Of a stretch of DNA of 64,000 nucleotides, positions 16,489 through 58,361 are shown one piece after another. Both the position numbers and the translations under genes were made by a program. The notes beneath the pieces are model-generated. The model saw only the letters and a list, made by a program, of their open reading frames with translations. It ran no database searches and was not told where the DNA came from. Source of the DNA: Nitrospira sp. (lineage in GTDB: Bacteria > Nitrospirota > Nitrospiria > Nitrospirales > Nitrospiraceae); the NCBI GenBank assembly GCA_965223535.1, contig CBDCWN010000002.1:59721-123720 (forward strand). The letters are read 5' to 3'. Position 1 is the stretch's first letter, and the number at the start of each line of letters is the position of its first letter.

Positions 16489-16578
16489 ATGATGACGTAT
16501 CACTGGCAAATGTGGAACGCACAAGTCCTGGGAAGGGCTGATTATTTCTCGTGGCCACATCAGCGGTGGTCGCGATAA
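16489..16578 (+). CDS. Putative 29-aa Trp-rich microprotein (MMTYHWQMWNAQVLGRADYFSWPHQRWSR)
   Basis: Translated by hand. GGAGG SD 5 nt upstream; lies in a tandem gene string. Confidence 0.4.
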   Translation: MMTYHWQMWNAQVLGRADYFSWPHQRWSR

Positions 16579-16646
16579 AGGAACAGGGACATCTTCACGG
16601 GATGTCCCTGGTGCGAGTTGAAGACAGAGGAAAGGAGGGACCGACG

Positions 16647-17321: not shown

Positions 17322-17405
17322 GGGAGTGTGGGGAGAGAAGGACCCTGATTTGGTGAACTCATTGAAGACTACTCGTGGGGTGAGTGCGAAAGGAGGTGGT
17401 CGGCC

Positions 17406-17489
17406 ATGAAAGTGCTCTCTTGGATTCGGGCGCTGGTGGCGACCTGGCTCATCGTGGCGCCGATCATGGTCGCGATCCGAATCCTGTGA
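17406..17489 (+). CDS. Putative 27-aa hydrophobic microprotein (MKVLSWIRALVATWLIVAPIMVAIRIL)
   Basis: Translated by hand. GGAGGT SD. Confidence 0.45.
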   Translation: MKVLSWIRALVATWLIVAPIMVAIRIL

Positions 17490-17578
17490 TCGAGTTATCA
17501 CAGAGCAGATCGTTGAATCCTATCGAAGAATGCGTGAACACGAGCCGATGACGCATAGGAAGGGAGGGGGAAGAAGCA

Positions 17579-17749
17579 ATGAAACATCTACCATGGTTCG
17601 TAGCAGCGGTCGGGGGCTGGCTCATCGCCGTGCCGTTTCTGCTCAACGAGGCCGGGACTGACATGGCAACACAGAATGGTGTCGGGGTGGGTCTGGTGAT
17701 GGTGGTAAGCGCACTCGTGTGGGGATTCTCGAAATGGGTCTGGCAGTGA
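17579..17749 (+). CDS. 56-aa two-TM protein, SPW-repeat-like
   Basis: MKHLPWFVAAVGGWLIAVPFLL...NGVGVGLVMVVSALVWG. SD GGAGG. Confidence 0.55.
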   Translation: MKHLPWFVAAVGGWLIAVPFLLNEAGTDMATQNGVGVGLVMVVSALVWGFSKWVWQ

Positions 17750-18091
17750 TGTATGTACCCAACATACGAGCTAGAAGGGGCGTGGCATGATGGTAGCCAA
17801 GCCCCTCACTAATTGGTGTCGTCACAGGGAATCACAATCCCGACTACGCAGTAGGCAGTGGATGATGCTCGCACGGCGTGTTCGTCCTATCAACACCTGC
17901 CGTGTGGTCGGCCTCCCCATCTCACACAGGACTAGGGGTTTTGCCAGTCCTGATCTGCGGGAGGATCGCGATACTCGATCGATGGTCGTGCTCATTCCAA
18001 ATGAGACGAAGCGGCCGGCATCCTCGGACGGATGCCGGTTCGATCTCTCGATGTGCTCAATGTGTATGTACTGCGTGAAAGGAGGACTCAC

Positions 18092-19045
18092 ATGACGCGT
18101 CTGACTCTCTTAACATGGGCTCTTGCCGTGTCTTTCTTGAGCGTGGGAGTGGTCTTGCCCACGGGTGTCTGTGCCGCCGATGCCCAACAACCTGCAAAAA
18201 AAGCCGAGCCTCAAACCAAGGCCCAGGCATCTCAGAAAGGCGAGACTCAATCCAAAGCCTCCCAATCGGTGCAGCCAGAGGTTGACAAACAAACGGCGGA
18301 TGCCGCCACCGAAAAACGAAAGAAACTACTAGCTGAGGCGACGGCCGCCCTCGATGAATCCAAGAAGGCGCTCAAGGCGTTGGACGAGAACAAACCGGAC
18401 CGCGCGTTGGCGGCCCTGGCCGCGGTGACGGGGAAACTCGAAGTCATCGTGGCGCGGGAACCTGCCCTGGCGTTGGCCCCTGTGGATGTCCAGGTTGTGA
18501 CGGAGGACGTACTGGCCAGTCCGGAAACCATCAAGACGACCATCGAGAAAGCCAAGGAGTATCTCGACGATGGAGACATTCAAAAGGCCCGTCCGTTGGT
18601 GGCGTCGCTGTCCAGCGAAATTCAATATCGGATCATCAATATTCCGCTGGCCACCTATCCGGATGCGATCAAAGCCATTACGCCCTTAATTGACGACGGG
18701 AAGATCAAGGAGGCGAAGACCGCGTTGCAGGCAGCCCTCAATACTCTGGTGGTGACAACCGAAGTGGTCCAGCTACCTAAGCTGCGAACAGAACAGTTAC
18801 TGAAACATGCACAGGAACTTGCGGAAAAGCAGGATCGGAGCAGCACCGAAAATACGGAATTGGCTGATATTCTTCACGCCGCGCGCAAGCAACTGGAACG
18901 AGGCGAGGTGCTGGGGTATGGCAATAAGGAGGCCTATCAACCTCTCTATGAGCAGCTCGATGAGTTGGAGAAAAAATCCTCCGGCGGCAAAAGTGGCAAG
19001 GGGTGGTTCGACAAGATCAAGAAACAGCTTTCGGAGCTGTTCTAA
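18092..19045 (+). CDS. yfdX: YfdX-family periplasmic protein
   Basis: Signal peptide and helical pattern ALKALDENKPDRALAALAAVTGKLE...IPLATYPDAIK...ALQAALNTLV. SD AAGGAGG. Confidence 0.75.
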   Translation: MTRLTLLTWALAVSFLSVGVVLPTGVCAADAQQPAKKAEPQTKAQASQKGETQSKASQSVQPEVDKQTADAATEKRKKLLAEATAALDESKKALKALDENKPDRALAALAAVTGKLEVIVAREPALALAPVDVQVVTEDVLASPETIKTTIEKAKEYLDDGDIQKARPLVASLSSEIQYRIINIPLATYPDAIKAITPLIDDGKIKEAKTALQAALNTLVVTTEVVQLPKLRTEQLLKHAQELAEKQDRSSTENTELADILHAARKQLERGEVLGYGNKEAYQPLYEQLDELEKKSSGGKSGKGWFDKIKKQLSELF

Positions 19046-19441
19046 TTCTACCGTGGTTCGGGTTCTATCCCGCTTCGGCGGAACACCTCAGTACGGTTCA
19101 GCATGAGCCAGGAGGGTGTCAAGACGTCGAGACGGATATTTATACTGCGGAGTCGAAGCCTGAAGCGGGCATAATCTTGGACACGCGGGGATGATGGGAA
19201 GCCACCTCGCCGCTGAACGGCGCGTTAGGGTCAATCTCTTCGGCCAAGAGCGACAAGAGGTGTGCCAGTCCTCTAACCAGTGACTAGGTCGTTGTTTGCA
19301 ACGGGCAAGCTCAGGATGACGAGCTGAACCAGTTGCGTCGGAACTTTATCCCAGCGTGTAGCGCGAACATGAGAATCGGTGCATGTTCAATCGGGCGATC
19401 TCGGGCACGGTCTCGCGAGGCACCACGGAGGAACAGGAACG

Positions 19442-21268
19442 ATGAATAGGCAGGTCTCCTTTTCAATTTGGTATGTGCTGCTCGCCGTCATGGCGGTGGT
19501 GATCGTGCATGACTTCATTCTGGCACTGAACCAGGTCGAAGAGCTTCCGTACAGTGAATTCAAACGGCTGGTTGCGGAGGAGAAGGTCGCTGAGGTTGCG
19601 GTGACCAGCCATATGCTGGTCGGAACATTGAAATCTGAGGGGGACTCAAAAGAACAGAAAGCGTTTCGGACCGTGCGGGTTGAGGATCCGGACCTCGTCC
19701 GTGAACTCAATGAACATGGAGTCACCTTCACCGGCGTCATTGAATCCACGTTCTTGCGCGATCTCCTTTCATGGATCATTCCGGTCGCACTCTTCGTCGG
19801 CATCTGGTTTTTCATCTTTCGGCGATTGGGACAGGCTCAAGGCGGCTTTATGCAGGTCGGCCAGTCGAAGGCCAAAATCTACATGGAGAAGGACGTCAAC
19901 GTCACATTCGCGGATGTCGCCGGAGTGGATGAGGCCAAAGAAGAGCTGCGAGAGGTGATCGAATTCCTCAAGACGCCGGAGAAATTCACCAAGCTCGGCG
20001 GCAAGATCCCGAAAGGGATCTTACTCGTTGGACCACCTGGAACAGGGAAGACACTGCTCGCACGCGCGGTGGCAGGAGAGGCGTCGGTGCCGTTCTTCAG
20101 CATCAGTGGATCGGAATTTGTGGAGATGTTCGTGGGAGTCGGGGCGGCGCGGGTTCGTGACCTCTTCGAACAGGCGAAGGGCAAAGCTCCCTGTATCATT
20201 TTCATCGATGAATTGGATGCGCTTGGGAAAGCCCGGGGTATGGGGCCCATGGCGCATGAGGAACGGGAGCAAACACTCAATCAACTGCTGGTTGAGATGG
20301 ATGGATTCGATCCTCGCGTCGGGGTCATCCTCATGGCCGCGACCAACCGTCCGGAAATTCTTGATCCGGCCTTGCTCCGCGCCGGGCGATTCGATCGTCA
20401 TGTGACCGTGGATCGCCCCGACAAGAAGGGACGTCTGGATGTGCTTCGAGTTCACGCGAAGAAGGTGGCGTTGCGCCCTGACGCAGATCTGGAACAGATC
20501 GCGGCGATGACCCCAGGATTCTCAGGGGCGGACCTAGCCAACGTGATCAACGAATCGGCCCTGCTTGCAGTTCGTCGCGGGAAGGACCAGGTAAGCGTCG
20601 ACGAGTTGCAGGAGGCGGTGGAGCGAGTCATCGCGGGCTTGGAAAAAAAGAATCGCGTCCTGAACAAGATGGAGAAAGAACGGGTGGCCTATCATGAAAC
20701 CGGTCATGCCCTCATCGCCCTGTCCATTCCGGGGACCGACCACGTGCAGAAGATCTCCATTATTCCTCGTGGCGTAGCAGCGCTCGGCTATACGTTGCAG
20801 CTTCCGACGGAAGACCGGTTTCTGATGACGCAATCCGAGTTGGAGAATAAAGTGGCCGTATTACTGGGCGGGCGAATTGCCGAAGAAACCATCTTCGGCG
20901 AGGCCTCCACCGGAGCACAGAACGATCTCGTGAAAGCCACTGATATCGCAAAAAGCATGGTCAAGGCCTACGGGATGAGCGACAAGCTCGGCACCATCAC
21001 CTTAGAGCAAGAGCGACAGCCACAATTTCTCCAGCTTCCTGTCGCTTCCGAAAGAGGGGACTACTCGGAAGAAACTGCTCGTGAGATTGATTGCGAAGTG
21101 CGGCGAATTATCGAGGAGCAGTATGGACGGGTGAGGCGACTACTGGAGGAGAGGAAAGCGGCTCTGCAAAAAGGGGCACAGCTCTTGTTGGAACGGGAGG
21201 TGATTACCGGGGCTGAGCTGAAGGCGATAATGGATGTTAATTTAGTAGAACAATCTGCGCGGAGATAA
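19442..21268 (+). CDS. ftsH: ATP-dependent zinc metalloprotease FtsH
   Basis: Two N-terminal TMs, Walker A GPPGTGKT, Walker [30 protein letters not shown] and HETGH Zn motif. Confidence 0.97.
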
Positions 21269-21355
21269 CCGAAGGAGGTTCACCGGTATCTTCGCTATCG
21301 TACGCGTGTCAACACTCGCTGATATCATCGACTGAACAGCCGGAACCGAAGGGCT

Positions 21356-22288
21356 ATGGAATACAAAGACTACTACAAGATCCTCGGCGTGGAGCGCACC
21401 GCGACGGCCGATGACATCAAAAAAGCCTACCGCAAGCTGGCGCGCACCTATCATCCGGATGTCAGCAAGGAGGCCGGGGCGGAAGCGCGCTTTAAAGAAA
21501 TCGGTGAGGCCTACGAAGTCCTTCAAGATCCACAGAAGCGAGCGGCCTATGACCAACTCGGGACCCGCTGGCAGGCGGGACAGGACTTTACACCTCCGCC
21601 GGACTGGGGGACAGGTTTCGAGTTCACCCAGGGCAGAGCATCGAGGGAGGCCGCCCCCGACTTCAGCGACTTCTTTTCCAGTCTCTTCGGCAATTTTGCT
21701 CGTCAGGCCGATGCGAGCCGGGCGCGCGGCGAGGACCATCATGCGAAGATCCTCATCCCGCTCGAAGACGCATTTCATGGGGCGACCCGCACCATTACCC
21801 TGCGTGCACCCCAACTGGATGCGCAGGGTCGCGTGGTGCTGCGCGAACACACGCTCAACATACGGATTCCCAAAGGCATTCGTGACGGCCAGCTCATCCG
21901 ACTAGCCGGCCAAGGCACGCCGGGAACAGGTGGGGCGCCCGGAGGTGATCTCTACCTAGAAATTCATTTCGATCCCCATGCGTTGTACCGGGTGGAGGGG
22001 CATGATCTCTCGCTGACCCTGCCACTTGCTCCATGGGAAGCGGCGCTCGGCGCGACGGTCAAAGCGCCGACCCCGACCGGTGTGGTCGAAGTCAAGGTGC
22101 CAGCCGGTTCGCAGAGCGGGCGGAAGCTTCGGCTCAAGGGCCGGGGAATTCCCGGCGAGCCGCCGGGTGATCTCTATCTCGTCCTGGACGTGGTCCTTCC
22201 GAAAGCGGACACCGCGCGGGCCCAGGAGCTTTATCGGACGATGGCGCAGGAACTGTCCTTCAATCCCCGACGGGCTCTTGGCGTGTGA
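21356..22288 (+). CDS. cbpA: Class II J-domain protein CbpA
   Basis: KDYYKILGV...YHPD, DnaJ C-terminal domains, no CxxCxGxG zinc finger. Followed by cbpM. Confidence 0.92.
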   Translation: MEYKDYYKILGVERTATADDIKKAYRKLARTYHPDVSKEAGAEARFKEIGEAYEVLQDPQKRAAYDQLGTRWQAGQDFTPPPDWGTGFEFTQGRASREAAPDFSDFFSSLFGNFARQADASRARGEDHHAKILIPLEDAFHGATRTITLRAPQLDAQGRVVLREHTLNIRIPKGIRDGQLIRLAGQGTPGTGGAPGGDLYLEIHFDPHALYRVEGHDLSLTLPLAPWEAALGATVKAPTPTGVVEVKVPAGSQSGRKLRLKGRGIPGEPPGDLYLVLDVVLPKADTARAQELYRTMAQELSFNPRRALGV

Positions 22289-22300
22289 GGAGGTTCTGTC

Positions 22301-22618
22301 ATGGAGTATGAAATTCTGACAGGGAACATCATCGGCGATGAGGGCGTGCTCACGACGGAGGAGTTGGCGCGAGCCTGCCGGGCCGAGGTGTCATGGATTG
22401 CTGAATTGATCGACGTCGGGATCTTAGCGCAAGAAGGAGAAGACCCGTCACGGTGGCGATTCTGCGCGGGGGACCTCACCTGTGCTCGCCGAGCCGCCCG
22501 CCTGCAACAGGCGTTTGCAGTGAACACGGACGCGCTGGCGGTCATGCTTGATCTGCTGACCGAGATCGAGCGCCTGCGTGATCGTCTGAAGCGGGCGGGA
22601 TTGGATTCGGAGGAGTGA
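22301..22618 (+). CDS. cbpM: Chaperone modulator CbpM (MerR-like fold)
   Basis: LTTEELARACR...WIAELIDVGIL...ARLQQAFAVN...MLDLLTEIERLR, 12 bp after cbpA. Confidence 0.88.
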   Translation: MEYEILTGNIIGDEGVLTTEELARACRAEVSWIAELIDVGILAQEGEDPSRWRFCAGDLTCARRAARLQQAFAVNTDALAVMLDLLTEIERLRDRLKRAGLDSEE

Positions 22619-22622
22619 GCCA

Positions 22623-23046
22623 GTGCGCATCGTCTGTCCCCATTGCCAGAGCGTCAATCGCGTGCCGGGAACCCGCGTGAGCAATGGTTCCAGTGCGCAG
22701 TGCCATAGGCCGCTGTTCATCGGACAGCCGATCGCTCTGACCGTGGCGGATTACGATGTGCACGCGACACGGAACGACATCCCGGGGGTGTGGACTTCTG
22801 GGCGCCGTGGTGTAGGCCCTGCCGGGTGATGGCACCGGCCCTTGCGCAAGCAGCCAAGATTCTTGAGCCAGACGTTCGTCTGGTCAAGGTAAAGACAGAG
22901 AAGGAACAGGCGCTGGGGGTCCGCTTTGGCATTCAGAGTCTCCCGACTATGATCATACTCAGAGGGGGACATGACGTGGCGCGACAATCCGGGCCCTCGG
23001 TACGCAGGACATCGTGCGTTGGGTCCGCACATATACGTATAGGTGA
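22623..23046 (+). pseudogene. trxC: Thioredoxin 2 (Zn-finger TrxC) pseudogene
   Basis: CPHC start and DFWAPWCRPC active site lie in different frames. Frameshifts near 22785 and 22993; second Zn-finger CxxC is damaged. Confidence 0.85.
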
Positions 23047-23297
23047 GTCGAACCGCGCTACGCATGTAGCGATTTTGGCGAGTTATGAGCTCCATTCAAT
23101 GGCGCGTAATGCTACAGCTCCTCCATTCGTTCTGTCGCACGTCTCCTCTCCATAAATTTCATTCTATTCTCTAGCCAGTTGGCACGCACGAATGCTCACA
23201 TGACCTTCGAATAATTCTTTATCCTGTGGACAACTTTCCCAGACTGAACCAGGCACTCGAATTGCTGAGCTAGATGTCTGTCGTAGGAGTGGCCATC

Positions 23298-23407
23298 ATG
23301 TCCCGCTCCTTCTCGACCGGAGACCAGATTCTTAACGCGATTCGGCCCAGACGGGGCTGTGAACTCAACGCTCTGCTGAGAGAATGCTTCGGTTTGACTC
23401 GGAACTA
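23298..23407 (+). pseudogene. Truncated small gene (C-x-L-x6-C-x2-LT-x-N family), cut at the Tn3 element B left IR
   Basis: SD AGGAG then MSRSFSTGDQILNAIRPRRGCELNALLRECFGLTRN, ending at the IR. Same Cys/Leu spacing as the pseudogene at 39407. Confidence 0.5.
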
Positions 23408-26400
23408 CGCCTATTAGCCACATCCACCCGAAAATCCACAATAAGAAACAATAGCGTCTAGCCACAGCTTTTCAAGGTAGGTATCTCTCATATTCCATAG
23501 GCTTCCCCCTCCGCTCTCGATCCCGTTCCGTTCAGGTTGACAAGCCATTACAATGCTCTAGCTTGTGTGTGTTCGCACAGTCGTGTCTTCACGATCAGGA
23601 TGGATGCCGCGTCGTTTCCCTCAGACAACGATCCGACGGAGACCGATGATCAGGAGCGCCTCACGGAGGCCGACCGCCTGCCCGTCGACATTGATCCCGA
23701 GACCCTGCGGAAATATTTCACGCTGACTGAATCGGATTTAGTCCAGGTCCATCAATGCCGTGGCATCCTCAACAAACTCGGGTTCGCCGTGCTGTTGTGC
23801 ACCCTGCGATGGCGTGGGGCCTTCCTGCGCTCGCTGCAGGATCTGCCCCAGGCCGTCCTCGAAACGGTGGCGACCCAGGTGGGCGTGCTGCCGATCCCGT
23901 TGGATGGCTATCCGCAACACGAGAACACGCGCTACGAACACTATGAACGCATCCGTCAGTACTTGCAGTTCGTGCGCTGTGATGCCACGCAACGGGAGCG
24001 CTTGTTCGATCACTTGGTCGCGATGGCCCAAGGCCGTCCTCGCGCCACGGCTCTCCGTCACGTGGCGGAAGACTGGCTCCAACGGGAACGGATCGTGCGA
24101 CCCGGACGAACGACCCTGCGCGATGCCATTACGGCCGCACGGGAAACCGCACTGCAGGGTGTGTATACGGTGCTGTCTGCGGCCCTCACGGAGAAGCACG
24201 CCGCGGAACTGGATGCCTGGTTGGTCAGTGGTGCTCCAGACTTGGATCACACACCTCCTCAGAAGAGCGTCCCGCGATTCCGTTCACGCCTGGAGTGGTT
24301 GAAGACGGTGCCACGCAAAGAATCCCCGAACGCCCTCCTCACTTTACTGGATCGACTGACGGAGCTGTGCGCCTCCCATCTCAGTACCCTGCCGATCCTG
24401 AGCGAGGTCCATCCCGCCACGCGTCGACTCTTAGCCAGCTGGGGCTACCGCTATGATGTGTGGAGTTTGCGCCGGTTCGCTCCCGCCAAACGGCAGGCGA
24501 TCGTCTTGTGTTTTCTGCAGGCGGCTCGTGCTGAAACAACAGATGGCATCATCGAGATGCAAGATAAACTCATTACCGGCGTCCATAATAAGGCGCGCCA
24601 CCGCTATGAGGAGCTGTTACGCGCGTCAGAGGAGGCACGAACACGAGCCGTCGAGGTGCTGGAGGAGCTGGGAAGCCTGGTACTGGATGACACGGTGTCG
24701 GATGAGGTGCTGCGTCAAGCCATCTTCACCAAGATTCCGAGCGACGATCTGAACCGATTAGTGGCGGGCTGTCGTGCGTTACGAAACGACTCTGCGGGAT
24801 CTCCGCTGGAGTTGGTGGCGCAGTGGTATGGGTATACTCGCCAATATTCTCCCGTGCTGCTGGAGCGGACACCGTTTCAGTTCGCCGAGCACTCTCCCCT
24901 CCGTCGAGCGATCACCTATGTGAACCAGCTCAATCGGCATCATGCGCGGAAGCTGGACGCGGATGCGCCCATTGAGTTTCTGCCGCCCCGGTGGGTGAAG
25001 CATGTGGTGCGACGAGATCGCACGGGAGTCGTGACTCTGTCACGACCGCACTATGAACCGGCGCTCCTGACGACGCTCAATGAGCGGCTGAAATCAGGTG
25101 ATGTGACCGTAGCGGGCTCCCGACGATGGACGGATTTTGAGGACTATCTCATTCCACGCCCGGTGTGGGCAGAGCGACGAGGCGCTTACTATGCTGCGCT
25201 TGGATTGCCCCAAGAGGTGGACCGGTACCTCGCACAGCTGAATGAGAACTTGGGTCAAGTCGCCGGGGCCATTGACCGGCGCGTGCCCTACAATCAGGCC
25301 CTACGCATCGATGCGGCGAAACGCCAGTTCCATCTCGCCGCCCTGAAGGGCCTTGAGCGGCCGGATACGGTGAAGCAGGCGAAAGCATTAATCCAATCAC
25401 GGCTGGCACGCATTGATTTGGTGGACCTCTTGATCGAGATGGACCACCAGACCAACATGCTGCATCACTTTCTCCGCCATCCGGATGCCTCCCGGTTATC
25501 CCCGGCGATTCGTCGCCGAAACGTCCTGGCCGCGTTAATCGCGATCGGCTGTAATATGGGTCCACAGCGGATGGCCGTGGCTTCTGGTCTTCACCTTCAC
25601 GACATTAGTTTTGTCGCAGACTGGTACCTCACCGACGAGGCCTTGAAAGCCGCGAGCGTCGATCTTGTCAACTTTGCAACGCGCCAACCGATGAGCCGCG
25701 TCTATGGCCAAGGGAATACCTGCTCTGCTGATGGCATGCGGTTCTATGTGCCAGTCAACATCTTGGCGGCGGACTATAGTCACGTGCTGCAAGGCCGTGG
25801 CGTGACCCTGTTTGCCCATACATCCGACACCGGCCTGCGGCTCCATCAGCAACCGATTCCCTGTCGGCTGCGGGAGGCCGCCTTCAGTCTCGATGGCTTA
25901 CTGGAGCACGATACCGAACTCAATCCCACCGTCTGCTACACCGACACCCATGGCTATACGGAAGTCGTGATGGCGGCAGGGGCCCTGTTGGGGTTTGATC
26001 TGGCTCCACGCATCAAAGACATTAAGGATCAAACACTCTATAAGATGGACCGTCAGCAGTCCTTCCCGAATTTGGATCCCATACTCACCGGCACGATCAA
26101 ACCGCACCTCGTGCGACAGGCGTGGGATGAAACGGTACGCGTGGTCGCCTCCATTCAGGACCGGATTGTGTCGGCCTCGCTCATCCTGCACCGACTGGGT
26201 TCCTATGCACGACAGAATAGCATCCATCAGGCGTTGGCGGAGATCGGCCGGGTTCACAAGACGATCCACATCCTCAAGACCTTGGACGATGAGGAGTACC
26301 GCCGTCGGATGGGGCGGGAACTCAATAAAGGGGAGGCGTCCCATGCGCTCTCCCGGTTTCTCTGTTTTGGGAAGGAAGGTCATCTGCAAGGGCGGGAATT

Positions 26401-26674
26401 TGGCGATCAGCTCCATACCTTCAGTTGCTTATCCGTGCTTCATAATGCGGTGGTGGCATGGAACATCTTGCACATCGGGCGCGTGGTCGACGAACTCCGC
26501 GCTGAAGGGCATGTGCTTGACGAGGCGACGCTCTCGCTCACGACTCCGCTGTTGCACAAGCACGTGAATCCATACGGACGCTACCATTTTGATGTGGATC
26601 GCATGCGCCAAACGCTCGATCCGGTGGCTCCTGAGGCTTAATGTGGTTTTTCGGGTGGATGTGGCTAATAGGCG
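23408..26674 (+). mobile_element. Resolvase-less Tn3-family element B with CGCC-terminated 38-bp IRs (3267 bp)
   Basis: IRL 23408-23445 CGCCTATTAGCCACATCCACCCGAAAATCCACAATAAG and IRR 26637-26674 match at 36/38. Flanks are AACTA and AATTA. Confidence 0.85.
23600..26641 (+). CDS. tnpA: Tn3-family transposase (element B)
   Basis: DDE motifs CSADGMRF, YTDTHGYT and ELNKGE, and C-terminal HVNPYGRYHF. Probable start is the ATG at 23600. Confidence 0.93.
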   Translation: MDAASFPSDNDPTETDDQERLTEADRLPVDIDPETLRKYFTLTESDLVQVHQCRGILNKLGFAVLLCTLRWRGAFLRSLQDLPQAVLETVATQVGVLPIPLDGYPQHENTRYEHYERIRQYLQFVRCDATQRERLFDHLVAMAQGRPRATALRHVAEDWLQRERIVRPGRTTLRDAITAARETALQGVYTVLSAALTEKHAAELDAWLVSGAPDLDHTPPQKSVPRFRSRLEWLKTVPRKESPNALLTLLDRLTELCASHLSTLPILSEVHPATRRLLASWGYRYDVWSLRRFAPAKRQAIVLCFLQAARAETTDGIIEMQDKLITGVHNKARHRYEELLRASEEARTRAVEVLEELGSLVLDDTVSDEVLRQAIFTKIPSDDLNRLVAGCRALRNDSAGSPLELVAQWYGYTRQYSPVLLERTPFQFAEHSPLRRAITYVNQLNRHHARKLDADAPIEFLPPRWVKHVVRRDRTGVVTLSRPHYEPALLTTLNERLKSGDVTVAGSRRWTDFEDYLIPRPVWAERRGAYYAALGLPQEVDRYLAQLNENLGQVAGAIDRRVPYNQALRIDAAKRQFHLAALKGLERPDTVKQAKALIQSRLARIDLVDLLIEMDHQTNMLHHFLRHPDASRLSPAIRRRNVLAALIAIGCNMGPQRMAVASGLHLHDISFVADWYLTDEALKAASVDLVNFATRQPMSRVYGQGNTCSADGMRFYVPVNILAADYSHVLQGRGVTLFAHTSDTGLRLHQQPIPCRLREAAFSLDGLLEHDTELNPTVCYTDTHGYTEVVMAAGALLGFDLAPRIKDIKDQTLYKMDRQQSFPNLDPILTGTIKPHLVRQAWDETVRVVASIQDRIVSASLILHRLGSYARQNSIHQALAEIGRVHKTIHILKTLDDEEYRRRMGRELNKGEASHALSRFLCFGKEGHLQGREFGDQLHTFSCLSVLHNAVVAWNILHIGRVVDELRAEGHVLDEATLSLTTPLLHKHVNPYGRYHFDVDRMRQTLDPVAPEA

Positions 26675-26679
26675 AATTA

Positions 26680-26884
26680 CGCGTGCTCTCGTTGCAACTC
26701 CTCCAGAATTGCCCGATGCTCATCAACACCATTCTTGTGGAGCGCACCGTGGAGCGGCAGAAGCTGTGGCCTCGGCTCAAGGTGAGGATTTCCGTGGTCT
26801 GACGCCACTCTTCTACAATCCATCAATCCCTACGGTACGTTCAGTCTGGATCTGAACCGCCGATCATTTCCGGACGTGGCCTGA
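26680..26884 (+). pseudogene. Frameshifted C-terminal remnant of an element-A-like Tn3 transposase
   Basis: Translates to VLSLQLLQNCPMLINTILVERT...DFRGLTPLFY...INPYGTFSLDL, which parallels the element A TnpA C-terminus. Confidence 0.8.
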
Positions 26885-26984
26885 GCCTGTGGCACCTTAT
26901 CACAGCGTCAGATCCGTTGGGCCTTCTATAGCTAAGCCCACTATTACCGATAGACATGGAGGTCGATTTGAGTGATCATGGGGC

Positions 26985-27311
26985 ATGAGATGCTCAGTCG
27001 ACTTGCGTCAACGGGTGGTGGAGTTTGTGCGGAGTGGAGGCAGCAAGGCCGAAGCGGCTCGGCGGTTCAAGGTCGGTGAGGCCAGCGTGTACCGCTGGCT
27101 CAAGCCTGGCGGCATCGCCTACAAGCGCCCAGGCCCTCGCGGTTCTCGCAAGCTGGATTGGGAGCAATTACGCCGTCATGTGGCGGCGCATCCCGATCGC
27201 ACACAAGCGGAACGGGCGCGGCATTTCCAGGTGTCTCGGCATTGCATCTGGAACGCACTCCACAAACTAGCAGTGACCCATAAAAAAAAGGATGGGCTAC
27301 CAAGAACGTGA
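26985..27311 (+). CDS. IS630 transposase OrfA (HTH)
   Basis: SVDLRQRVV...AEAARRFKVGEASVYRWLK. Ends after an A8G run. Confidence 0.85.
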   Translation: MRCSVDLRQRVVEFVRSGGSKAEAARRFKVGEASVYRWLKPGGIAYKRPGPRGSRKLDWEQLRRHVAAHPDRTQAERARHFQVSRHCIWNALHKLAVTHKKKDGLPRT

Positions 27312-27813
27312 TCCGCAGCAACGGAAACGGTTCCTGCGCCTGCGAGAACGGTTCTTTCGTCGCGGCAAACAGCCCGTCCATATCGATGAATGCGGCTTTG
27401 CCCCTTCGATGGCGCGGCGGTATGGGTACGCGCCGAAGGGCCGACGTGTGGACGGCCTGGCCTCCGGGCATCGCCGGCCACGGACCTCGCTGATTGCGGC
27501 CCGTATGGAAGGGCGACTCGCAGAGCCACTGCTCTTCGAGGGGACGTGCGATACGGTGGGCTTCAACTCCTGGCTGCAGACGCAGCTATGCCCGCGCCTC
27601 AACGCTCAGCACCTCGTCATACTGGACAATGCCGCTTTTCACAAATCGCCAGAGACAGCACAGCTCATCGCAGCCACCGGCGCCACGCTGCTCTTCCTGC
27701 CACCGTACTCCCCTGACTTCAACCCGATTGAGCATGACTTTGCCGCTCTCAAAAAACGTCGCGAATATCGGGACACCGTTTCTCTCGAGGAAATTGTCAA
27801 GGCCTATCACTAA
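27292..27813 (+). CDS. IS630 transposase OrfB (DDE)
   Basis: Motifs HIDECGF, ILDNAAFHK and LPPYSPDFNPIE. Confidence 0.85.
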   Translation: MGYQERDPQQRKRFLRLRERFFRRGKQPVHIDECGFAPSMARRYGYAPKGRRVDGLASGHRRPRTSLIAARMEGRLAEPLLFEGTCDTVGFNSWLQTQLCPRLNAQHLVILDNAAFHKSPETAQLIAATGATLLFLPPYSPDFNPIEHDFAALKKRREYRDTVSLEEIVKAYH

Positions 27814-28132
27814 CTATGGGCTTAGCTATAATTCGGTATCTAACCATGGTCCTGAATGACGAACTGGAAGGAGTCTTTCGTCGCTGGTACCCGTTGCTCT
27901 CGGAAGACAGGCATGCGTGAACTGTTGCCTTCTGCGACAGCGGCAATGTGTTCCCTGTTGCCAATTTCCCCTGTGCATAACTTCTCCATTTCCAAAGCGG
28001 CAGCTTTCTCGGTCAGATCCATCGCCCAGCTGAAGTCTTCCTCAATGGCTCCCTCCTTGCAGGACGTTGGCCACATCAGCAGGACAGCCACCAAACAAGA
28101 ACCCCATTGTCGTCAAGTTGTAAGAGGAGGTC

Positions 28133-30553
28133 ATGCAACGGCTGCCGGTCTATTTTCTGTTCTGCCTCAGCTTGATTCTGCCCTTCGCCCAGGAGAGTGC
28201 GACCGCAAAACCATTGACCACCGTGCAGATTGCGACTGTCCGAGATGGACCATCGGACCTCGTGCCGGAGCTCCGTGATCTCATTCGCAAAGAACTCACG
28301 GAATTGACCAGCCATGAGTTCGACGTGCGGTTTCCCGACGAGTGGCAACTGCAGGGAGGATGGTCGGTCAAGGGAGTGAACCAGGCGATTGATCGCGTGC
28401 TGACTCAGCCTCGTGTCGATCTTGTCATCGCTCTCGGGATTCTCGCCTCCCACGAAGTCAGTCAGCGGCGGCAACTTTCCAAGCCTGTGATCGCCCCCTT
28501 CGTCATTGATCCGCATCTGCAGGGCGTGCCTTTCAAGAAGGGCACAAGCGGGGTCAAGAACTTGAACTATCTGGTCTCCTTGAAGAACTTCGAGCGTAAT
28601 CTCGAGGCCTTTCAAGAGGTGTTTCCCTTCACGCAGCTGAGTGTGCTTGCCGATCGCGTGTTGCTCGAGGCGTTTCCGTTGCTTGAGAGCCGAGCGCGCA
28701 CCCTCGCCAAAGCGCATGGTGTCAGCCTCACAGTCGTCCCGGTGGAGACCTCCGCTGAAGCGATACTTGGCTCGCTTCCTCAGAATACCGACGCTGTCTA
28801 TCTGTCGCCGTTGCCGCGTCTATCCTCTCGTGAGCAGGATCGTCTGATTGCAGGGCTGAACACCCGCCGGCTGCCCAGCTTTTCGGCAGTGGGGCAACGG
28901 GAAGTGCAGCGGGGCGTCACCGTGGCCCTGTCTCCTGAATTGGATCCCCGCAAACTGGCACGAACCATCGCCGTCAATATCCAGCGCATTCTGTTAGGAA
29001 CGGATGCCGGACAAGTTGAGGTGACATTCACACGGGGCGAGCACCTCACCATCAATATGGCCACGGTCCGCGCGATCGACAAATGGCCAAGTTTCCAAGT
29101 GCTGAGTGAAGCCGAATTACTCAATGAGGATAGCTCTCTGTCCTCACAGCGCCTGTCACTGTTCGATGCCGTGCACCATGCCATGGGAGGAAATCTTGAT
29201 CTGGCTGCCGCGGATCGCAAAGTGGAGGCGGGAGTCGGCCAGGTGGGCCAGGCGCGCTCCGCCCTCTTACCTCAGGTGCTCGTCGGCACATCGGGTGTCT
29301 TAAATGGTCGAGGACCGGATGCGTTTGGAACCGGTGGGACTCCAGGCCAAGGAGCGGTGGTGTTCGGAGGATTTCGGCAAACCCTGTATTCGGATAATGC
29401 CTGGACCAACTATACGGTCCAGCAGAAGGCCCAACTCTCTCGTGAAGAAGAGCTCAATCAGCTGCGGTTGGACACCGCTCAGCATGCGGCCATCGCCTAT
29501 CTCACCGTTCTGCGGGCCAAGACCGTCCGACGCATTCAGAAGGAGAACCTCAAGCTCACACGCTCCAACTTGGAGCTGGCCTCGGCTCGTGAGGCGGTGG
29601 GCTACGCGCTCCGGGATGAGGTGTTTCGATGGGAGGCGGAGGTGGCGAATGGGCAAAAAGCCGTGGTGTCGATCGAAGCGCAAGAACGGCAGGCGGAAGT
29701 CCAGGTGAATCGGATCTTGAATCGACCGTTGGAAGAGCCATTCCAAACCGTGGAACAGACGTTGGAAGACCCTGCGTTGCTGGGTGATACGCGCCAGCTC
29801 TTTGCCTACATCGAGAATCCTCGGGGATTCCAATTGTTTCGGGCGTTCGAAGCGGAAGAGGGGATCAAGGCTGCGCCGGAGATCCGGCGGCTTGATGCGT
29901 TGATCGCGGCGAAGGAACGGATGATCACGAATGCGGAACGAGCCTTCTGGATGCCGGAACTGACCTTGCAAGGAGCGGGATTTCAGCAATACGCGCGCGG
30001 CGGCGGCGGAGCCGGCAGCTTGACAATCCCCTTTGGTCCTGTCGGCTTTGCCCAGAGCCAGACCGATTTTTATGTCGCCAGCATTGGACTGACTTTCCCA
30101 TTGTTTCAAGGCGGGCATAAGACGGCCACGGCCCTGAGGGTCCGTAAAGAGCTGCGTGAGGTGCAGCTCGAACGGACCGCGACGATACAACGCGTGGAAG
30201 AACGGGTCCGTGCCGCCCTCTACCAAACCGGTGCATCCTTCCCCAGCATCAGACTCTCGCGGAAAGCGGCTGAGTCGGCCGGTAAGACGTTGGATCTCGT
30301 CCTGGATCAATATTCTCGAGGCACGGTCGACATCATCAAACTCTTGAATTCCCAACATGCCGCGGTGACCGCACACGAGGCGGCGGCCAACGCAGTGTAC
30401 GATTTCCTCATCGATTTGATGCGGGTCCAACGCGCCGTCGGGCACATGAGTTTTTTTGAGAGCCCGGAGGAACGAGCCGCTTGGTTCCAACGCTTGAAAA
30501 CATTCTTTGTAAACGCCGGTGTCTCGCCGATGCGACGCGAAGGTCAACGATAG
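28133..30553 (+). CDS. Fusion of an ABC substrate-binding-like domain and a TolC-family outer-membrane efflux domain (806 aa)
   Basis: N-terminal ~330 aa ends in LPSFS...NIQRILLG...LTINMATVRAI, like the ABC_sub_bind C-terminus. Two OEP repeats follow (LLPQV, FWMPEL). Confidence 0.75.
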   Translation: MQRLPVYFLFCLSLILPFAQESATAKPLTTVQIATVRDGPSDLVPELRDLIRKELTELTSHEFDVRFPDEWQLQGGWSVKGVNQAIDRVLTQPRVDLVIALGILASHEVSQRRQLSKPVIAPFVIDPHLQGVPFKKGTSGVKNLNYLVSLKNFERNLEAFQEVFPFTQLSVLADRVLLEAFPLLESRARTLAKAHGVSLTVVPVETSAEAILGSLPQNTDAVYLSPLPRLSSREQDRLIAGLNTRRLPSFSAVGQREVQRGVTVALSPELDPRKLARTIAVNIQRILLGTDAGQVEVTFTRGEHLTINMATVRAIDKWPSFQVLSEAELLNEDSSLSSQRLSLFDAVHHAMGGNLDLAAADRKVEAGVGQVGQARSALLPQVLVGTSGVLNGRGPDAFGTGGTPGQGAVVFGGFRQTLYSDNAWTNYTVQQKAQLSREEELNQLRLDTAQHAAIAYLTVLRAKTVRRIQKENLKLTRSNLELASAREAVGYALRDEVFRWEAEVANGQKAVVSIEAQERQAEVQVNRILNRPLEEPFQTVEQTLEDPALLGDTRQLFAYIENPRGFQLFRAFEAEEGIKAAPEIRRLDALIAAKERMITNAERAFWMPELTLQGAGFQQYARGGGGAGSLTIPFGPVGFAQSQTDFYVASIGLTFPLFQGGHKTATALRVRKELREVQLERTATIQRVEERVRAALYQTGASFPSIRLSRKAAESAGKTLDLVLDQYSRGTVDIIKLLNSQHAAVTAHEAAANAVYDFLIDLMRVQRAVGHMSFFESPEERAAWFQRLKTFFVNAGVSPMRREGQR

Positions 30554-30574
30554 CCAGATAATCGGAGCGAACCT

Positions 30575-31564
30575 ATGTCGAATCCGAAGATTCCTCGCCC
30601 AGTCATTGCCGGAATCGTGATTCTGCTCATTGGATTGGGGGTGTCTGTATGGTGGTTCTTCATTCGAACTCCGCCGTTGGTGGGATTTGGAAGCGGCAAT
30701 GGGCGGCTTGAGGTCCAGGAAATAGACGTGGCCACCAAGTTCCCTGGCCGGATTGCGGAAGTGCTAGCTGATGAAGGTCAGCCAGTGCAGGCCGGACAGG
30801 TTGTCGCTCGTATGGATATCAGTTCATTGCAGGCCCAATTGCGGGAAGCAGAAGCCCAGGTTCAGCGTACCCGTCAAGGGCAGAGAACCGCCAAGGCGTT
30901 GCACGCGCAGCGACAGGGTGAGTTGCTCTTGGCGTCACGAGATCTGGAGCGGGCGCGTGGTCTCTACGTCAATGCCAATATCTCCGTGAAGGATTACGAT
31001 CGTGCGCAGACCGCGATGAAAACCGCGACGGCTGCCTTAACAGCAGCCGAGGCCCACATGGCCGAAGCGGACGCCGCAGTCCAGGCGGCCCTTGCTCAAA
31101 CGGAACGGATCCAGGCAGACCTCAAGGAGTGCGACTTAACGGCACCGCGGAACGGCCGGGTGCAATTCAGGTTGCATGAGCCCGGTGAGGTGCTCCCACC
31201 AGGCGGGAAAGTCCTGACGCTCATCGATCCGACGGATGTCTACATGACGGTATTTCTCCCGGCTGAGGAGACCGGACGGATCGCGTTAGGAGCAGATGCC
31301 AGGATTACGCTGGATGCGGCCCCGAATCTGGTGATCCCGGCCACGGTCTCCTTCGTCGCCGACAAGGCGCAGTTCACCCCGAAGGAAGTGGAGACGAGGT
31401 CGGAGCGCGAGAAACTGATGTTCCGGATCAAGGTCCAGATTGATCCGGAGGTGGTCAAGGGCCATGAGGCGATGGTCAAACCAGGACTCCCGGGAATGGC
31501 CTACGTGCGACTCGATTCGGCCGCGCAGTGGCCCTCATCCCTTCAAACGAGGCTCAGGCCATGA
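30575..31564 (+). CDS. yhiI: HlyD-family membrane fusion protein (YhiI-like)
   Basis: [20 protein letters not shown] and [22 protein letters not shown]. Upstream of rbbA. Confidence 0.85.
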
Positions 31565-34305
31565 ATGCGCTGGCAACCGTCGCTCGTCTTGAGCAGGTCA
31601 CCCATCGCTATGGGGATACGACGGCCCTCGAAGCGGTGACGCTTGACATTCCAGCCGGGGGCATGGTGGGGCTCATCGGTCCGGACGGGGTCGGGAAATC
31701 CAGTTTATTGGGGTTGCTCGCCGGCGCGAAGAAAATCCAAAGTGGCCACGTCGACGTCCTCGGTGGCGATATGGCGATCGTGCGGCATCGTACCGAAGTC
31801 TACCCGCGGATTGCGTATATGCCGCAAGGACTCGGGGGGAATCTCTATCCCACACTGTCCGTGTTCGAGAATGTGGATTTCTTCGGCCGCCTGTTCGGGC
31901 AGGGTCGAGAAGAACGGGAATGGCGGATCACGGAGCTGCTACAGAGCACGGGCCTGGCGCGCTTTCGAGAGCGCCCAGCGGGAAAACTCTCGGGCGGCAT
32001 GAAACAAAAGCTGGGACTCTGCTGCGCACTGATTCATGACCCGGAGTTGCTGATTCTGGATGAACCGACGACCGGAGTGGATCCTCTGTCGCGTCGACAG
32101 TTCTGGGAGTTGATCAACCGGATCCGTGAACGCCGCATGGACATGAGTGTGTTGGTGGCCACGGCCTACATGGAAGAGGCTGAGCGTTTCGACTGGCTGG
32201 TGGCGATGGATGCCGGCAGGGTCCTGGCGACGGAGAGCCCGGGGGATCTGAAGACCCGATTCGCGGTCCAGACTCTGGAGGAAGCGTTCATTGCCCTGCT
32301 CCCCGAAGAAAAGCGTCGAGGTCACAAGACCATCACGATCTCCCCTCGGCAAAATCAGGAGGGCACGCTGGCCATCGAGGCGCAGGGCCTCACGATGCGG
32401 TTCGGGACGTTCACCGCCGTGGATCATGTGAGCTTCCGCATCGAGCGGGGTGAAATCTTCGGCTTTCTCGGTTCCAACGGTTGTGGCAAGACCACCACGA
32501 TGAAGATGCTCACGGGACTGCTCTCCGCGACGGAAGGCGAGGCCAGCCTGTTCGGACATCCGGTGAATGCCCAGGATCTGGAAACACGGAAACGCGTCGG
32601 GTTCATGTCCCAGGCCTTCTCCCTCTATGGTGAACTGACGGTGCGCCAGAACCTCGAGTTGCACGCGAAGCTCTTCCATCTCCAGCCGGAGCGGATTCCG
32701 GGACGTATGGCTGAGCTGACCGAACGGTTTAAGCTGGACGCTTATCTGGATGATCTGGCCGAGGCGCTCCCGCTCGGGATTCGCCAACGTCTCTCCCTGG
32801 CGGTCGCGGTGGTCCACGAGCCGGAGATGTTGATCCTGGATGAGCCAACCTCCGGCGTCGACCCGGTCGCCCGCGACGGGTTCTGGGAACTGCTGATCGA
32901 ACTCTCTCGAAAAGACAGTGTAACGATCTTCATCTCGACCCATTTTATGAACGAGGGCGAACGGTGCGACCGCATCTCCTTGATGCACGCGGGGCGCGTG
33001 CTCGTGAGCGATACGCCGGACGCTTTGATCAAAACTCGCGGCACGGCCTCCCTCGAAGAGGCCTTCATCAGTTGTCTCGAAGAAGCGAGCCGGGGTGGGA
33101 TGCAGAAAGCACCTCCGGAGAAAGCTACCGCGAGCACACTGCGCGCCGCACCACCGGTGCAAGACCATCGTCGGGCCTCGTTCAGCCTCCACCGCATGCT
33201 GGCGTATGCCAGGCGGGAAAGTCTGGAGATTTGGCGCGATCCCATTCGGCTGACCTTTGCGCTGCTCGGATCGGTGGTCCTGATGTTTATCCTTGGGTAC
33301 GGCATTAATCTAGACGTGGAACATCTTCGATTCGCCACGTTGGACCGAGACCGAACCCTGCAGAGCCGGGACTATAGTTGGAACATTGCAGGTTCGCACT
33401 ATTTTATCGAACGGCCGCCGATCACCGACGATGCCGAGCTGGATCGTCGAATGCGGAGCGGCGAACTCAGTATGGCGCTCGAAATTCCTTCCGGATTCGG
33501 CCGGGACCTCAAACAAGGACGGCAGCCGGAGATCGGCGTGTGGATTGACGGTGCCATGCCGTTTCGGGCTGAGACCATCAAGGGCTATGCGCAGGGACTT
33601 CACGTCCAGTATCTCGGCGACCTTGCCCAACGCACCTATGGCCTCACACCCAAAGCAGGCTTTGCTGATCTCGAGTTTCGCTACCGATACAATCAGGATT
33701 TCGAGAGCCTCGAGGCTATGGTCCCGGCCGTGATTCCGCTGCTCTTGGTCTTCATTCCGTCCATTATGATGGCGCTGGGTGTGGTGCGAGAGAAGGAACT
33801 CGGATCCATTACCAATCTCTATGTCACACCGGTCACCCGCCTTGAGTTTCTGCTTGGAAAGCAACTGCCGTACATCGTGGTCAGCATGATCAGTTACTTT
33901 GGGCTGGTCGCACTGGCTGTGGTGGTGTTCAAGGTGTCTCTGAAAGGCAGTTTCGCGACTCTCACGCTGGGCGCCTTGCTCTACGTGACGGCGACGACGG
34001 GCGTAGGGCTCCTGATCTCCGCCTTCACCAACAGCCAGGTTGCCGCATTGGCCGGGACAGCGATCGGGACACTGTTGCCGACCATTCAGTTTTCTGGGTT
34101 GATCGAGCCGGTGGGGTCGATCGAGGGGGCGGGTGCGTTCATCGGACCCATCTGGCCTGCGACCTATTTCCTCGTCATCAGTCGCGGAGTCTTTACCAAG
34201 GCGCTTGGGGTCGGAGACCTCTATGGGGAACTGATGGCGTTGGCAGTGTTCATCCCCGTCTTGACCCTGCTCAGCATGGTTCTGTTGAAGAAACAAGGCA
34301 CCTGA
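31561..34305 (+). CDS. rbbA: RbbA-type ABC protein (two ATPase domains plus ABC-2 membrane domain)
   Basis: [34 protein letters not shown] and a C-terminal permease. ATG at 31561 overlaps the upstream stop. Confidence 0.92.
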
Positions 34306-34307
34306 GC

Positions 34308-57468: not shown

Positions 57469-58361
57469 AACACTCCCTCCTCCTCTCTGCGAGAGGTCTG
57501 GTTATGGGTTAAGAGTTAACTTAGTGGATGGTGAGTAGGCTAAACCGGGGGTTGGGGCAATCGATGCCGCCAGTACTCCGCCAGTGTTGGGCCTTACACC
57601 AATCCATCTGGTCAAGTATCAGCAACAGTTTGAAGATAAATACTCGCAATGAGAAGTCAAGAGGGGTCGTTCGATAACCCAGGATTCAATAAATATAGCT
57701 CTGGCTGTGGATCCGTGGAGAATGGTCCGTAGCTAACGGGGCGGGTATCCCGCCAGGCCCGGCCTACGAGTGTTTGTGTGTCGCCTGGTTGTCCAGGCTC
57801 GGATGTCTTTGCAGGGTGGTGGGCAGGCGGCGATCGACCTGCCACAGGAACGTCCAACGCTTCTCAGGACGATGGCAGGTTGGTGCCACGTAAGATCTCT
57901 CCCCTAATCACTTGAAGAGCTGACTCACCCACATAGAAGGCTAACGCCTTCTTGGGCGGATTCATGTATAACTCGACCACCTTCCGACCTTCTTCACAAA
58001 GAAAGGATAGGAAGACAGCTTGAAGGTCCGCCCACAATGCACCTGGACCTTCAAAATGGACAGATCCAGCTGCACCGTGCTGTGCCGGACTTTAAAGGAT
58101 ACCCGTCTCATGTGTGACCTCCCAACGCACGAGAGTATGCGGCAGATCGTGGCCGGGTACGCAGTGGTGTGGTTCGCACGCCGGGCATCGGCGCGCATTG
58201 GCCGTATGGGAGTCGTCTACCGCCCAAATAGCACCGAGGCACCTCCTTGATGAGAAGCCTGCACCAGCAAAGTACAAACGTTTAGGTACTTTATTGCGGT
58301 TACTCTTGGGGCACCATACAAGGAAACCTCGGATGTTCGTCGAAGCGGGTCCATAAACAGG

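Follow-up and report, generated by a model that had tools for sequence, protein, structure and literature searches.

A transposase-only Tn3-family element of Nitrospira with non-GGGG tips, and its environmental relatives

A 64,000-nt stretch of a Nitrospira sp. genome (the window) contains a Tn3-family transposon whose terminal inverted repeats start with CGCC. In this family, the terminal box A, 5'-GGGGT, is highly conserved (PMC9579193), and the literature agrees with the initial annotation that a GGGG start is nearly universal; as TnXax1 begins GAGGG (PMC4337579), GGGG is a usual, not a strictly defining, family feature. The locus raises the question of whether CGCC is the true end of the element and whether such an end works. 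We find that CGCC is the true end. It is very probable that the element is autonomous and belongs to the Tn3 family with a transposase as its only gene, that it comes from an uncatalogued environmental lineage and that its 38-bp ends, tipped C/G-G-C-C, are functional.

The element and its transposase

The element comprises the following features, in window coordinates.

23408..26674, + strand: complete 3,267-bp transposon of the Tn3 family, IS-like with tnpA as its only gene, delimited by the two inverted repeats
23408..23445, + strand: left terminal inverted repeat, CGCCTATTAGCCACATCCACCCGAAAATCCACAATAAG, with tip (box A position) CGCC and inner boxes CCGAAAA...TAAG
26637..26674, - strand: right terminal inverted repeat, reading inward as CGCCTATTAGCCACATCCACCCGAAAAACCACATTAAG
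23600..26641, + strand: tnpA, 1,013-aa Tn3-family DDE transposase (PF01526, PF13700, NF033527), its stop codon within the right repeat

The two repeats, 38 nt each, are complementary at 36/38 positions, as had been described, and their inner 22-mer occurs at two sites in the window, which are both repeats (chance expectation, 0). Both tips of the window element are CGCC, and the family-typical box A, 5'-GGGG(T), is absent. The inner part, CCGAAAA(T/A)CCACA(A/T)TAAG, is common to this element and to GGGG-tipped sister elements, and we take it to resemble the inner motif of Tn3. The window element has the repeats of ~38 bp, with inner boxes ending ...TAAG, by which the Tn3 family is recognized. 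Only tnpA fits between the repeats; there is no room for a second gene and so no resolvase and no resolution module, which upholds the earlier view that a resolvase is missing. The Tn3 family accepts transposase-only members.

The tnpA open reading frame spans 23537-26641 from a TTG, and the ATG at 23600, the start common to the relatives, gives 1,013 aa. Its product matches DDE_Tnp_Tn3 (PF01526, E 3.7e-121) and DUF4158 (PF13700) in Pfam and scores 839 bits against the NCBIfam equivalog NF033527 (cut-off 500). Residues D711, D782 and E912 align to D679, D751 and E881, the DDE triad assigned for Tn4430 (PMC9579193), and the triad columns are invariant in 72/72 aligned sequences. Together, these matches and the aligned triad confirm the intact DDE TnpA proposed from the open reading frame. 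One substitution, R930Q, is private to the window TnpA: the position is R in 68/72 relatives and aligns to Tn4430 R899, which touches end DNA (PMC9579193), and the window copy, with R930Q, may be impaired. Among the window copy and two relatives (L134 and L135), dN/dS for tnpA was 0.095-0.10 at dS 0.40-0.69, so tnpA is under purifying selection in these three diverged copies; their repeats differ at 0-2/38 positions despite the divergence of tnpA.

Tips across the lineage

The lineage is multi-copy in other genomes and metagenomes, with its closest copies in Nitrospira MAGs. Tips in the relatives are CGCC or GGCC and, further off, CGCG or GGCG. Within the clade, positions 1 and 4 are C or G, and the two ends of a single element can differ in this (CGCC/GGCC in L134 and CGCG/GGCG in L153), while positions 2-3 hold GC in all intact copies across dS 0.4-0.7; in the comparison of the window, L134 and L135 copies, bases 2-4 (GCC) are constant. 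A decayed relic (L010) has the tip TACC. The CGCC tip first described thus stands for the window element and does not extend to the whole lineage, whose tips are C/G-G-C-C, with CGCG/GGCG in more distant relatives. Two relatives (L152 and L154) also carry a tyrosine recombinase and a third (L153) a serine resolvase.

In a neighbour-joining tree, the non-GGGG elements formed one clade (bootstrap 85) with a CGCC/GGCC core (bootstrap 100), in line with the distinct Tn3 subgroup that had been proposed. By this sequence comparison, the non-GGGG tips (CGCC, GGCC, CGCG and GGCG) mark a monophyletic environmental clade that is sister to GGGG-tipped relatives. The non-GGGG tip is probably the derived state, because of the tree and because the sister elements, at about 67-71% amino-acid identity, carry GGGG in the same register. 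No previously catalogued subgroup of this kind was found among 72,556 plasmids, in the PDB or in the literature, ISfinder and TnCentral lying outside this scope: tblastn against the plasmids gave a best match of 33% identity, and megablast of the element against them gave no match, nor did viral contigs match either of two repeat patterns. A metagenome scan used the 15-base pattern CCTATKAGCCACATC, which is too short; 1 of the 120 loci returned was a real repeat (L063).

How the transposase came to act at such tips was considered through the Tn4430 residue K560, which reads G4. Replacement of this residue in the non-GGGG clade was rejected, as the equivalent residue is still a lysine, and a simple recognition-code change therefore does not explain the new tip. 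Two residues away, in the box A-reading helix, lies an L-to-A/V change that is specific to the non-GGGG clade. We tentatively suggest that box A was re-specified together with the transposase, such that C/G-G-C-C and GGGG elements would no longer cross-mobilise or cross-immunise.

A somewhat unlikely alternative is that tip recognition was relaxed and not re-targeted: the cut would be measured from the inner boxes, CGCC, GGCC, CGCG and GGGG would all work, the tip would need only to be G+C-rich and bendable with G at position 2, and the clade would have drifted. The unchanged K560 equivalent and the C/G variation at positions 1 and 4, even within L134 and within L153, are as this explanation predicts, and DNA bending with indirect read-out has been named as the main reason for box A conservation (PMC9579193). 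Drift is harder to reconcile with the invariance of positions 2-3 at such divergence, with a GGGG that is just as frozen in the large sister clade and with the clade-specific L-to-A/V change beside the box A-reading lysine; nor was a mixed element, with GGGG at one end and a non-GGGG tip at the other, seen.

If box A was indeed re-specified with its transposase, two Tn3-type elements could function in parallel in a single genome, as in the window, and the transferred 3' end nucleotide could be either G or C in the Tn3 family. The tip change may reflect an altered tip-handling surface of TnpA. The changed cleavage specificity suggested in the initial annotation can be retained only in the sense that, judging from the sequences, processing of the ends evidently takes place at a tip other than GGGG.

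Flanks, junctions and rearrangements

The sequences abutting the element, here and in related runs, are as follows.

23299..23407, + strand: start (~37 codons) of a 65-aa ORF truncated by the insertion (left flank), known from the empty allele L159
26675..26884, + strand: frameshifted C-terminal relic of a different Tn3-family tnpA (988-aa type, GGGG-tipped), the right-end target in this genome
49980..49984, + strand: right-end target CTCTT in run X6, corresponding to deletion of 26675-49979
58281..58285, + strand: right-end target TTTAG in run X7, from an 18-nt loose end

In the empty allele the sequence is ...CGGAACTAC|CTCTTCCTCGC..., with the 65-aa ORF complete. The relic on the right matched residues 919-955 and 969-984 of the window's other, 988-aa TnpA by tblastn, and its DNA is 73% identical to 45042-45136. 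It was thus correct that each end truncates a different gene. A simple insertion, with the upstream half of the relic's tnpA as the left flank, was rejected: tblastn found no upstream part of that gene left of the element, and L159 shows a different gene there.

The flanking 5-mers, AACTA and AATTA, match at 4/5 positions and had been considered an ambiguous target duplication. As the two flanks were never neighbours, with the relic on the right and the L159 gene on the left, the match is by chance and not a target duplication. The 5-bp duplications anticipated at the tips of other copies did not materialize either: when the 5-mers at both ends were compared, with offsets, no perfect duplication was present around any complete copy, and the one pooled match (ATCTT) is within chance expectation. 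A duplication is not expected of nested-deletion products. A simple insertion by these ends was not directly seen; an 85%-identical copy (L001) is single-copy, with no empty allele found in its source runs, and the ancestral right junction that would be expected, GGCG|AACTACCTCTTCC, did not turn up. The consensus loose ends of several contigs were mixed and their sequence was not readable. We also rejected the tip 4-mer as a 4-bp target duplication, as it is inverted and not direct in CGCC elements and moves with the element to different sites.

Empty and occupied alleles of the left site occurred together in runs X8 and X12, and the depth of the repeat sequence was 10-30 times that of the flank. 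The same left junction was paired with four different right junctions, all breaking at the outer end of the right repeat: with window position 26675 (window and X10), with 49980 (X6), with 58281 (X7) and with unmapped sequence (L158). Pairing of left and right junctions across the 3.3-kb repeat was made from short-read contigs, with matched depth and missing DNA, and not from spanning reads. A 1,426-nt contig from X6 passed, with 0 mismatches, from position 26674 of the element to 49980 of the window; depth in this run was 0 over 26675-41780 and 45428-49978, contigs of 100% identity covered 49979-61325, and a left junction at 49980 was absent. For X7, the junction is a single 18-nt loose end from a mixed community, TTTAGGTACTTTATTGCG, lying behind 26674, whose sole window match is 58281-58298 on the + strand. 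Within the window, the X6 junction lies 23 kb downstream and the X7 junction 32 kb downstream, both in the same orientation.

This junction set is a nested adjacent-deletion pattern, which fits intramolecular replicative transposition. A second Tn3 element of the window, of the GGGG type, has the 5-bp inverted-flank signature (CATGA, TCATG) of intramolecular inversion, and so intramolecular events do occur in this genome. The element is active or was so until recently, given the purifying selection and near-constant repeats, the co-occurring empty and occupied alleles and the varied right junctions. Its right end is the probable breakpoint of deletions of up to ~32 kb in this region of the Nitrospira genome. 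This region holds stress, proteostasis and efflux genes common to environmental strains.

It is improbable that the element is instead a dead relic with mutated tips, and that the variable right junctions arose by homologous recombination between copies or as assembly chimeras. Some copies are frameshifted (P0009 type), the window copy has R930Q and target duplications were not found, all as a relic might have it, and short-read chimeras are possible across repeats, with L135 and L136 sharing a left flank and differing on the right. Against this, selection has maintained tnpA and near-identical repeats across diverged copies, every breakpoint falls exactly at the tip and the empty allele coexists with the occupied one; furthermore, X6 lacks both 26675-49979 and the left junction at 49980 that is a prerequisite for inter-copy recombination.

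The same junctions locate the ends. At more than 25 independent junctions in other genomes and metagenomes, homology ended exactly at C/G-G-C-C and the flanks diverged immediately outside, as had been predicted for other copies. A 3,291-bp contig at 40x coverage (L139), a high-coverage collapsed repeat, runs exactly from repeat to repeat, and the break in the empty left-site allele is at 23408 +/-1 nt. In L001, homology with the window begins exactly at 23408 and stops at the right repeat, and a copy of 99.97% identity (L158) has the same left flank as the window copy and departs from it from 26675 on. CGCC is therefore the true end of the window element. That the real ends lie further out, with a canonical GGGG and an internal CGCC, is refuted by these junction data and has next to no probability: we found no supporting points, the outside sequence is different in every context, the empty site breaks at the tip and the GGGG-tipped sister repeats, also 38 bp, align with the CGCC repeat base for base in the same register.

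By analogy with Tn4430 and Tn3, the reaction chemistry would be as in those elements. TnpA would bind the conserved inner part of the repeats, ...CCACATCC..CCGAAAA..CCACA.TAAG, pair both ends and nick the 3' strand exactly at the tip; the 3'-OH would then be joined to a staggered target cut, and replication would copy the element. Since resolvase and res site are both missing, cointegrates would be the product of intermolecular events, to be resolved by the host's recombination, and intramolecular events would lead to deletion or inversion of adjacent DNA.

Comparison with known systems

No part of Tn3-family ends is more conserved than the GGGG tip, the site of DNA bending and cutting in the Tn4430 structure; this conservation may reflect base read-out or DNA shape. 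Here, an evidently functional natural clade departs from GGGG at two or three positions, the terminal one included, and together with its close GGGG-tipped sisters it provides a natural comparison pair for end recognition and cutting. Annotation tools that seek GGGG...TAAG repeats would miss or mis-delimit such elements.

The closest solved and named TnpA is that of Tn4430 from Bacillus thuringiensis (structures 7QD4, 7QD5, 7QD6 and 7QD8), the best PDB match (residues 37-998, E 1e-137); identity is only 32%, and our tree was built without a reference set of all seven subgroups. The Tn4430 subgroup is marked by a TnpA that groups with those of Tn4430, Tn5401 and TnBth4 and by tnpI and irs upstream of tnpA. 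The DDE triad, R901 and the equivalents of K560, R44 and R267 are conserved between the two transposases, and the focal element shares with Tn4430 its 38-bp repeats and their inner ...AAAA..CCAC..TAAG part. In L152 and L154, the tyrosine recombinase (PF00589) is co-linear and upstream of tnpA, like tnpI of Tn4430. Unlike Tn4430, the focal element has neither tnpI nor an internal resolution site, its tip is CGCC or GGCC and not the GGGGT box A, and its hosts are environmental Gram-negative lineages (Nitrospira MAGs) and not Bacillus.

The IS1071 subgroup and similar 'IS' entries resemble the focal element in carrying tnpA alone between family-type inverted repeats, a build that therefore relies on the host's recombination to resolve cointegrates and is prone to composite structures and rearrangements. 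IS1071 has 110-bp repeats starting with GGGG, whereas those of the focal element are 38 bp with a non-GGGG tip, and the two differ in TnpA subgroup (the subgroups are listed in PMC7157771). The exception to the run of G, TnXax1 (Xanthomonas, Tn4651 subgroup; PMC4337579), differs at one base and has 92-bp repeats, whereas the focal clade departs from GGGG at two or three tip positions, including the first, the nucleotide of the cleaved 3' end.

The nearest comparison is the GGGG-tipped sister clade (L002-L009 and L154), from Acidobacteriota, Bryobacteraceae and Chthoniobacterales MAGs. Its TnpA proteins are 66-71% identical to the focal one, and its repeats match in length and register and have almost the same inner part, GGGGTAGTAGCCACATCCAACCGAAAACCTCCGTTAAG; unlike the focal element, they are tipped GGGG, and several sister elements carry tyrosine recombinases and cargo.

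Repeats, transposase and true ends of the element

The 38-bp, CGCC-tipped inverted repeats and the intact 1,013-aa DDE transposase without a resolvase, as described in the initial annotation, were confirmed with the following features.
23408-23445 and 26637-26674: terminal inverted repeats, 38 nt, complementary at 36/38 positions
23537-26641: ORF with a TTG start, the sole long ORF in the element

The inner 22-mer of the repeats had no further occurrence in the 64 kb (0 expected by chance). Relatives use the ATG at 23600 as tnpA start, giving 1,013 aa, and the stop codon falls within the right repeat; no resolvase was found in the element, and no space is left for one beside tnpA between the repeats. 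TnpA matches Pfam DDE_Tnp_Tn3 and DUF4158 and scores 839 bits against the NCBIfam equivalog ‘Tn3 family transposase’ (cut-off 500). Its best solved relative is Tn4430 TnpA (32% identity), with which its catalytic D, D and E (D711, D782 and E912) all align. Residue 930 (window 26387-26389) is a Q private to the window copy and an R in 68/72 relatives, the two closest included; it aligns to R899 in the switch helix of Tn4430, a residue that shifts onto the end DNA upon activation (PMC9579193). Because this private R-to-Q change lies at a residue that contacts end DNA in Tn4430, the window copy may be weakened.

CGCC marks the true ends of the element, as the initial annotation had proposed should be checked in other copies. 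A second copy, in a Nitrospira metagenome-assembled genome (MAG; L001, 85% nucleotide identity), carries these tips at both repeats, and its homology to the window starts exactly at 23408. Further ends came from contigs encoding the exact window protein or close TnpA relatives (P0001, 92% identical; P0002, 89%; P0009, 93%, frameshifted), and from loose ends of metagenome contigs placed on the element ends. Together these gave more than 25 different flanks adjoining the tip directly, and no GGGG-like sequence lies outside the tip. Contig L139 (3,291 bp, 40x coverage) carries the repeats exactly at both contig ends, which is how a multi-copy repeat collapsed in assembly should look. The empty allele of the window’s left target, ...CGGAACTAC|CTCTTCCTCGC..., was present in seven sequencing runs and in contig L159, with its break point at 23408 ± 1 nt.

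Flanking sequences and probable nested deletions

Other mobile elements, relics and further features of the window are as follows.
9840-13088 (- strand) and 42081-45329 (+ strand): two inverted, 100% identical copies of the 988-type element, 3,249 bp, transposase-only
26675-26884: right flank, frameshifted final ~70 codons of another Tn3-type tnpA, of the 988-aa type
26927-27830: IS630-like element with 34-bp imperfect inverted repeats, DDE_3 ORF at 27292-27813
40370-40407: solo GGGG-type repeat relic, 74% identical to the 988-type repeat, ending ...CCCGTTACCCC, with no transposase gene beside it
46639-47417 and 55237-56015: 779-nt inverted repeat (83% identity) in two paralogous DegP-like genes of opposite orientation
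59909-61003: integrase
62863-63735: ParA

Each end truncates a different gene, as initially noted. On the left, the flank comprises codons 1 to ~37 of a 65-aa ORF unrelated to the right-flank relic, whose 988-aa source type is intact elsewhere in the window; the IS630-like element sits just downstream of the relic, at the expected place of its own terminal repeat. Because of these unrelated genes, and because the empty-allele sequence beyond the target is absent from the entire window, the two flanks were never neighbours, and AACTA/AATTA, first considered a possible target duplication, is a chance 4/5 match.

The left junction recurs with three other right junctions.
L158 (contig, element 99.97% identical): continues into GTCCTCTGG..., absent from the window
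Run X6: continues into CTCTTCGCC..., window 49980, + strand
Run X7: continues into TTTAGGTAC..., window 58281, + strand (an 18-nt junction in a mixed community)

In X6, one 1,426-nt contig links 26674 to 49980 with 0 mismatches, 100% identical contigs span 49979-61325, and depth is zero over 26675-41780 and 45428-49978, the interval between being the multi-copy 988-type element; left junctions were paired with right ones in the short-read data on the basis of depth and absence of the deleted DNA. A single fixed end, combined with several co-linear breakpoints at the opposite end, is the pattern classically left by intramolecular replicative transposition (adjacent deletion), and products of this kind would not be expected to show target duplications. 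The fixed left junction and co-linear right breakpoints thus fit a reading in which the flanks would reflect nested deletions rather than a duplication. None of the complete copies, the GGGG-tipped sister L008 included, had a perfect 5-bp duplication around it, so plain insertion by these ends was not directly observed.

The 988-type element has 38-bp repeats with canonical GGGG tips and a 988-aa TnpA, and its copies bracket ~29 kb. Their 5-bp flanks, CATGA (13089-13093) and TCATG (45330-45334), are mutual reverse complements, the signature expected of intramolecular replicative inversion, the inverting counterpart of adjacent deletion, which lends independent support to such intramolecular events here.

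Run X1, labelled with the window’s organism, contained the focal element and both junctions at a depth of ~2.3 and was nearly without contigs over 27256-41780, which could reflect low coverage or a strain difference. Protein-quality-control and stress genes are densely packed at 13263-23155 and 46357-59600: two small heat-shock proteins, YfdX, FtsH, a DnaJ-like protein, a MerR_2 regulator, three DegP-like proteases, and a zinc-ribbon ORF with a thioredoxin-domain ORF directly behind it, the two overlapping by 1 nt in different frames. Genes for efflux and ABC transporters are present as well. The region bears some likeness to transmissible heat-resistance or proteostasis islands.

Tip variation, recognition and activity of the lineage

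The proposal of a distinct subgroup with CGCC ends stood as regards a single non-GGGG clade, but the tip is not uniformly CGCC. Within the close group (>88% identity) ends are mostly CGCC and otherwise GGCC, the latter at both ends of the P0009 type and one end of L134, while elements at 70-75% identity (L151; L152, which carries a tyrosine recombinase; L153, which carries a serine resolvase) have CGCG or GGCG. GGGG tips, in register with these and next to an almost identical inner repeat, occur in 66-71% identical elements of Acidobacteriota, Bryobacteraceae and Chthoniobacterales MAGs. In a neighbour-joining tree the non-GGGG elements formed one clade (bootstrap 85; CGCC/GGCC core, 100) whose sister is the GGGG group, and Tn4430 and additional GGGG elements branched further out; this topology marks the non-GGGG tip as the derived state.

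In Tn4430, trans contacts to base pairs 1-6 come from the linker, scaffold and RNase H-like domains, K560 reads G4 and K564 reads T6; a sharp bend beside the cut falls at box A (5′-GGGGT, described as highly conserved), and E881 lies opposite the scissile bond at C1 (PMC9579193). Since the K560 equivalent is kept in the non-GGGG clade, the K564 position varies in all groups and that helix shows a single clade-specific change, L562 to A or V, no simple new read-out of the tip is apparent from the sequences. The transferred 3′ end would read ...GGCG-3′ for a CGCC tip and ...GGCC-3′ for a GGCC tip; its terminal nucleotide is evidently not fixed. We weakly favour a re-targeted tip-handling surface over a relaxed, shape-based tip requirement, which is also possible.

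The intact tnpA genes of the window, L134 and L135 differ pairwise by a dS of 0.40-0.69 (dN/dS ~0.10), over which their repeats differ at 0-2/38 positions and tip bases 2-4 are constant in the close group; in the decayed relic L010 the tip reads TACC. Empty and occupied alleles of the window’s left site were found within the same runs. Word depth of the 38-bp repeat, compared over window 23408-23446 and 26637-26674, was 10-30x flank depth in runs X6, X8, X9 and X12, and in those runs a second, unrelated interior (GAGGGGAGTGTCCGTTCACAATATTC...) lies behind this repeat in a GGCC-tipped form; these two observations indicate that other elements, possibly cargo-carrying or miniature, share the ends. 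Separately, a frameshifted GGCC-tipped copy (L141-L146; for example, L142 3513-3911) recurs in one context in 10 or more samples drawn from separate studies, and on the right it adjoins an N-terminally truncated tyrosine-recombinase gene, again an element end coinciding with a gene break.

Place among Tn3-family elements

No TnpA encoded on PLSDB plasmids was >33% identical to that of the element, and the sources examined, which did not include ISfinder or TnCentral, gave no specific name for its close relatives; an earlier catalogue entry is possible. One published tip exception, TnXax1, differs by one base (GAGGG; PMC4337579), and no others were found in the literature consulted. The observation is genuine and of use for work on mechanism, yet lies inside a well-understood family. 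By transposase, repeat architecture and behaviour the element belongs to the Tn3 family; it is transposase-only, as are IS1071-type members, and has Tn4430 as its nearest named relative, but departs from these known relatives in its tip.
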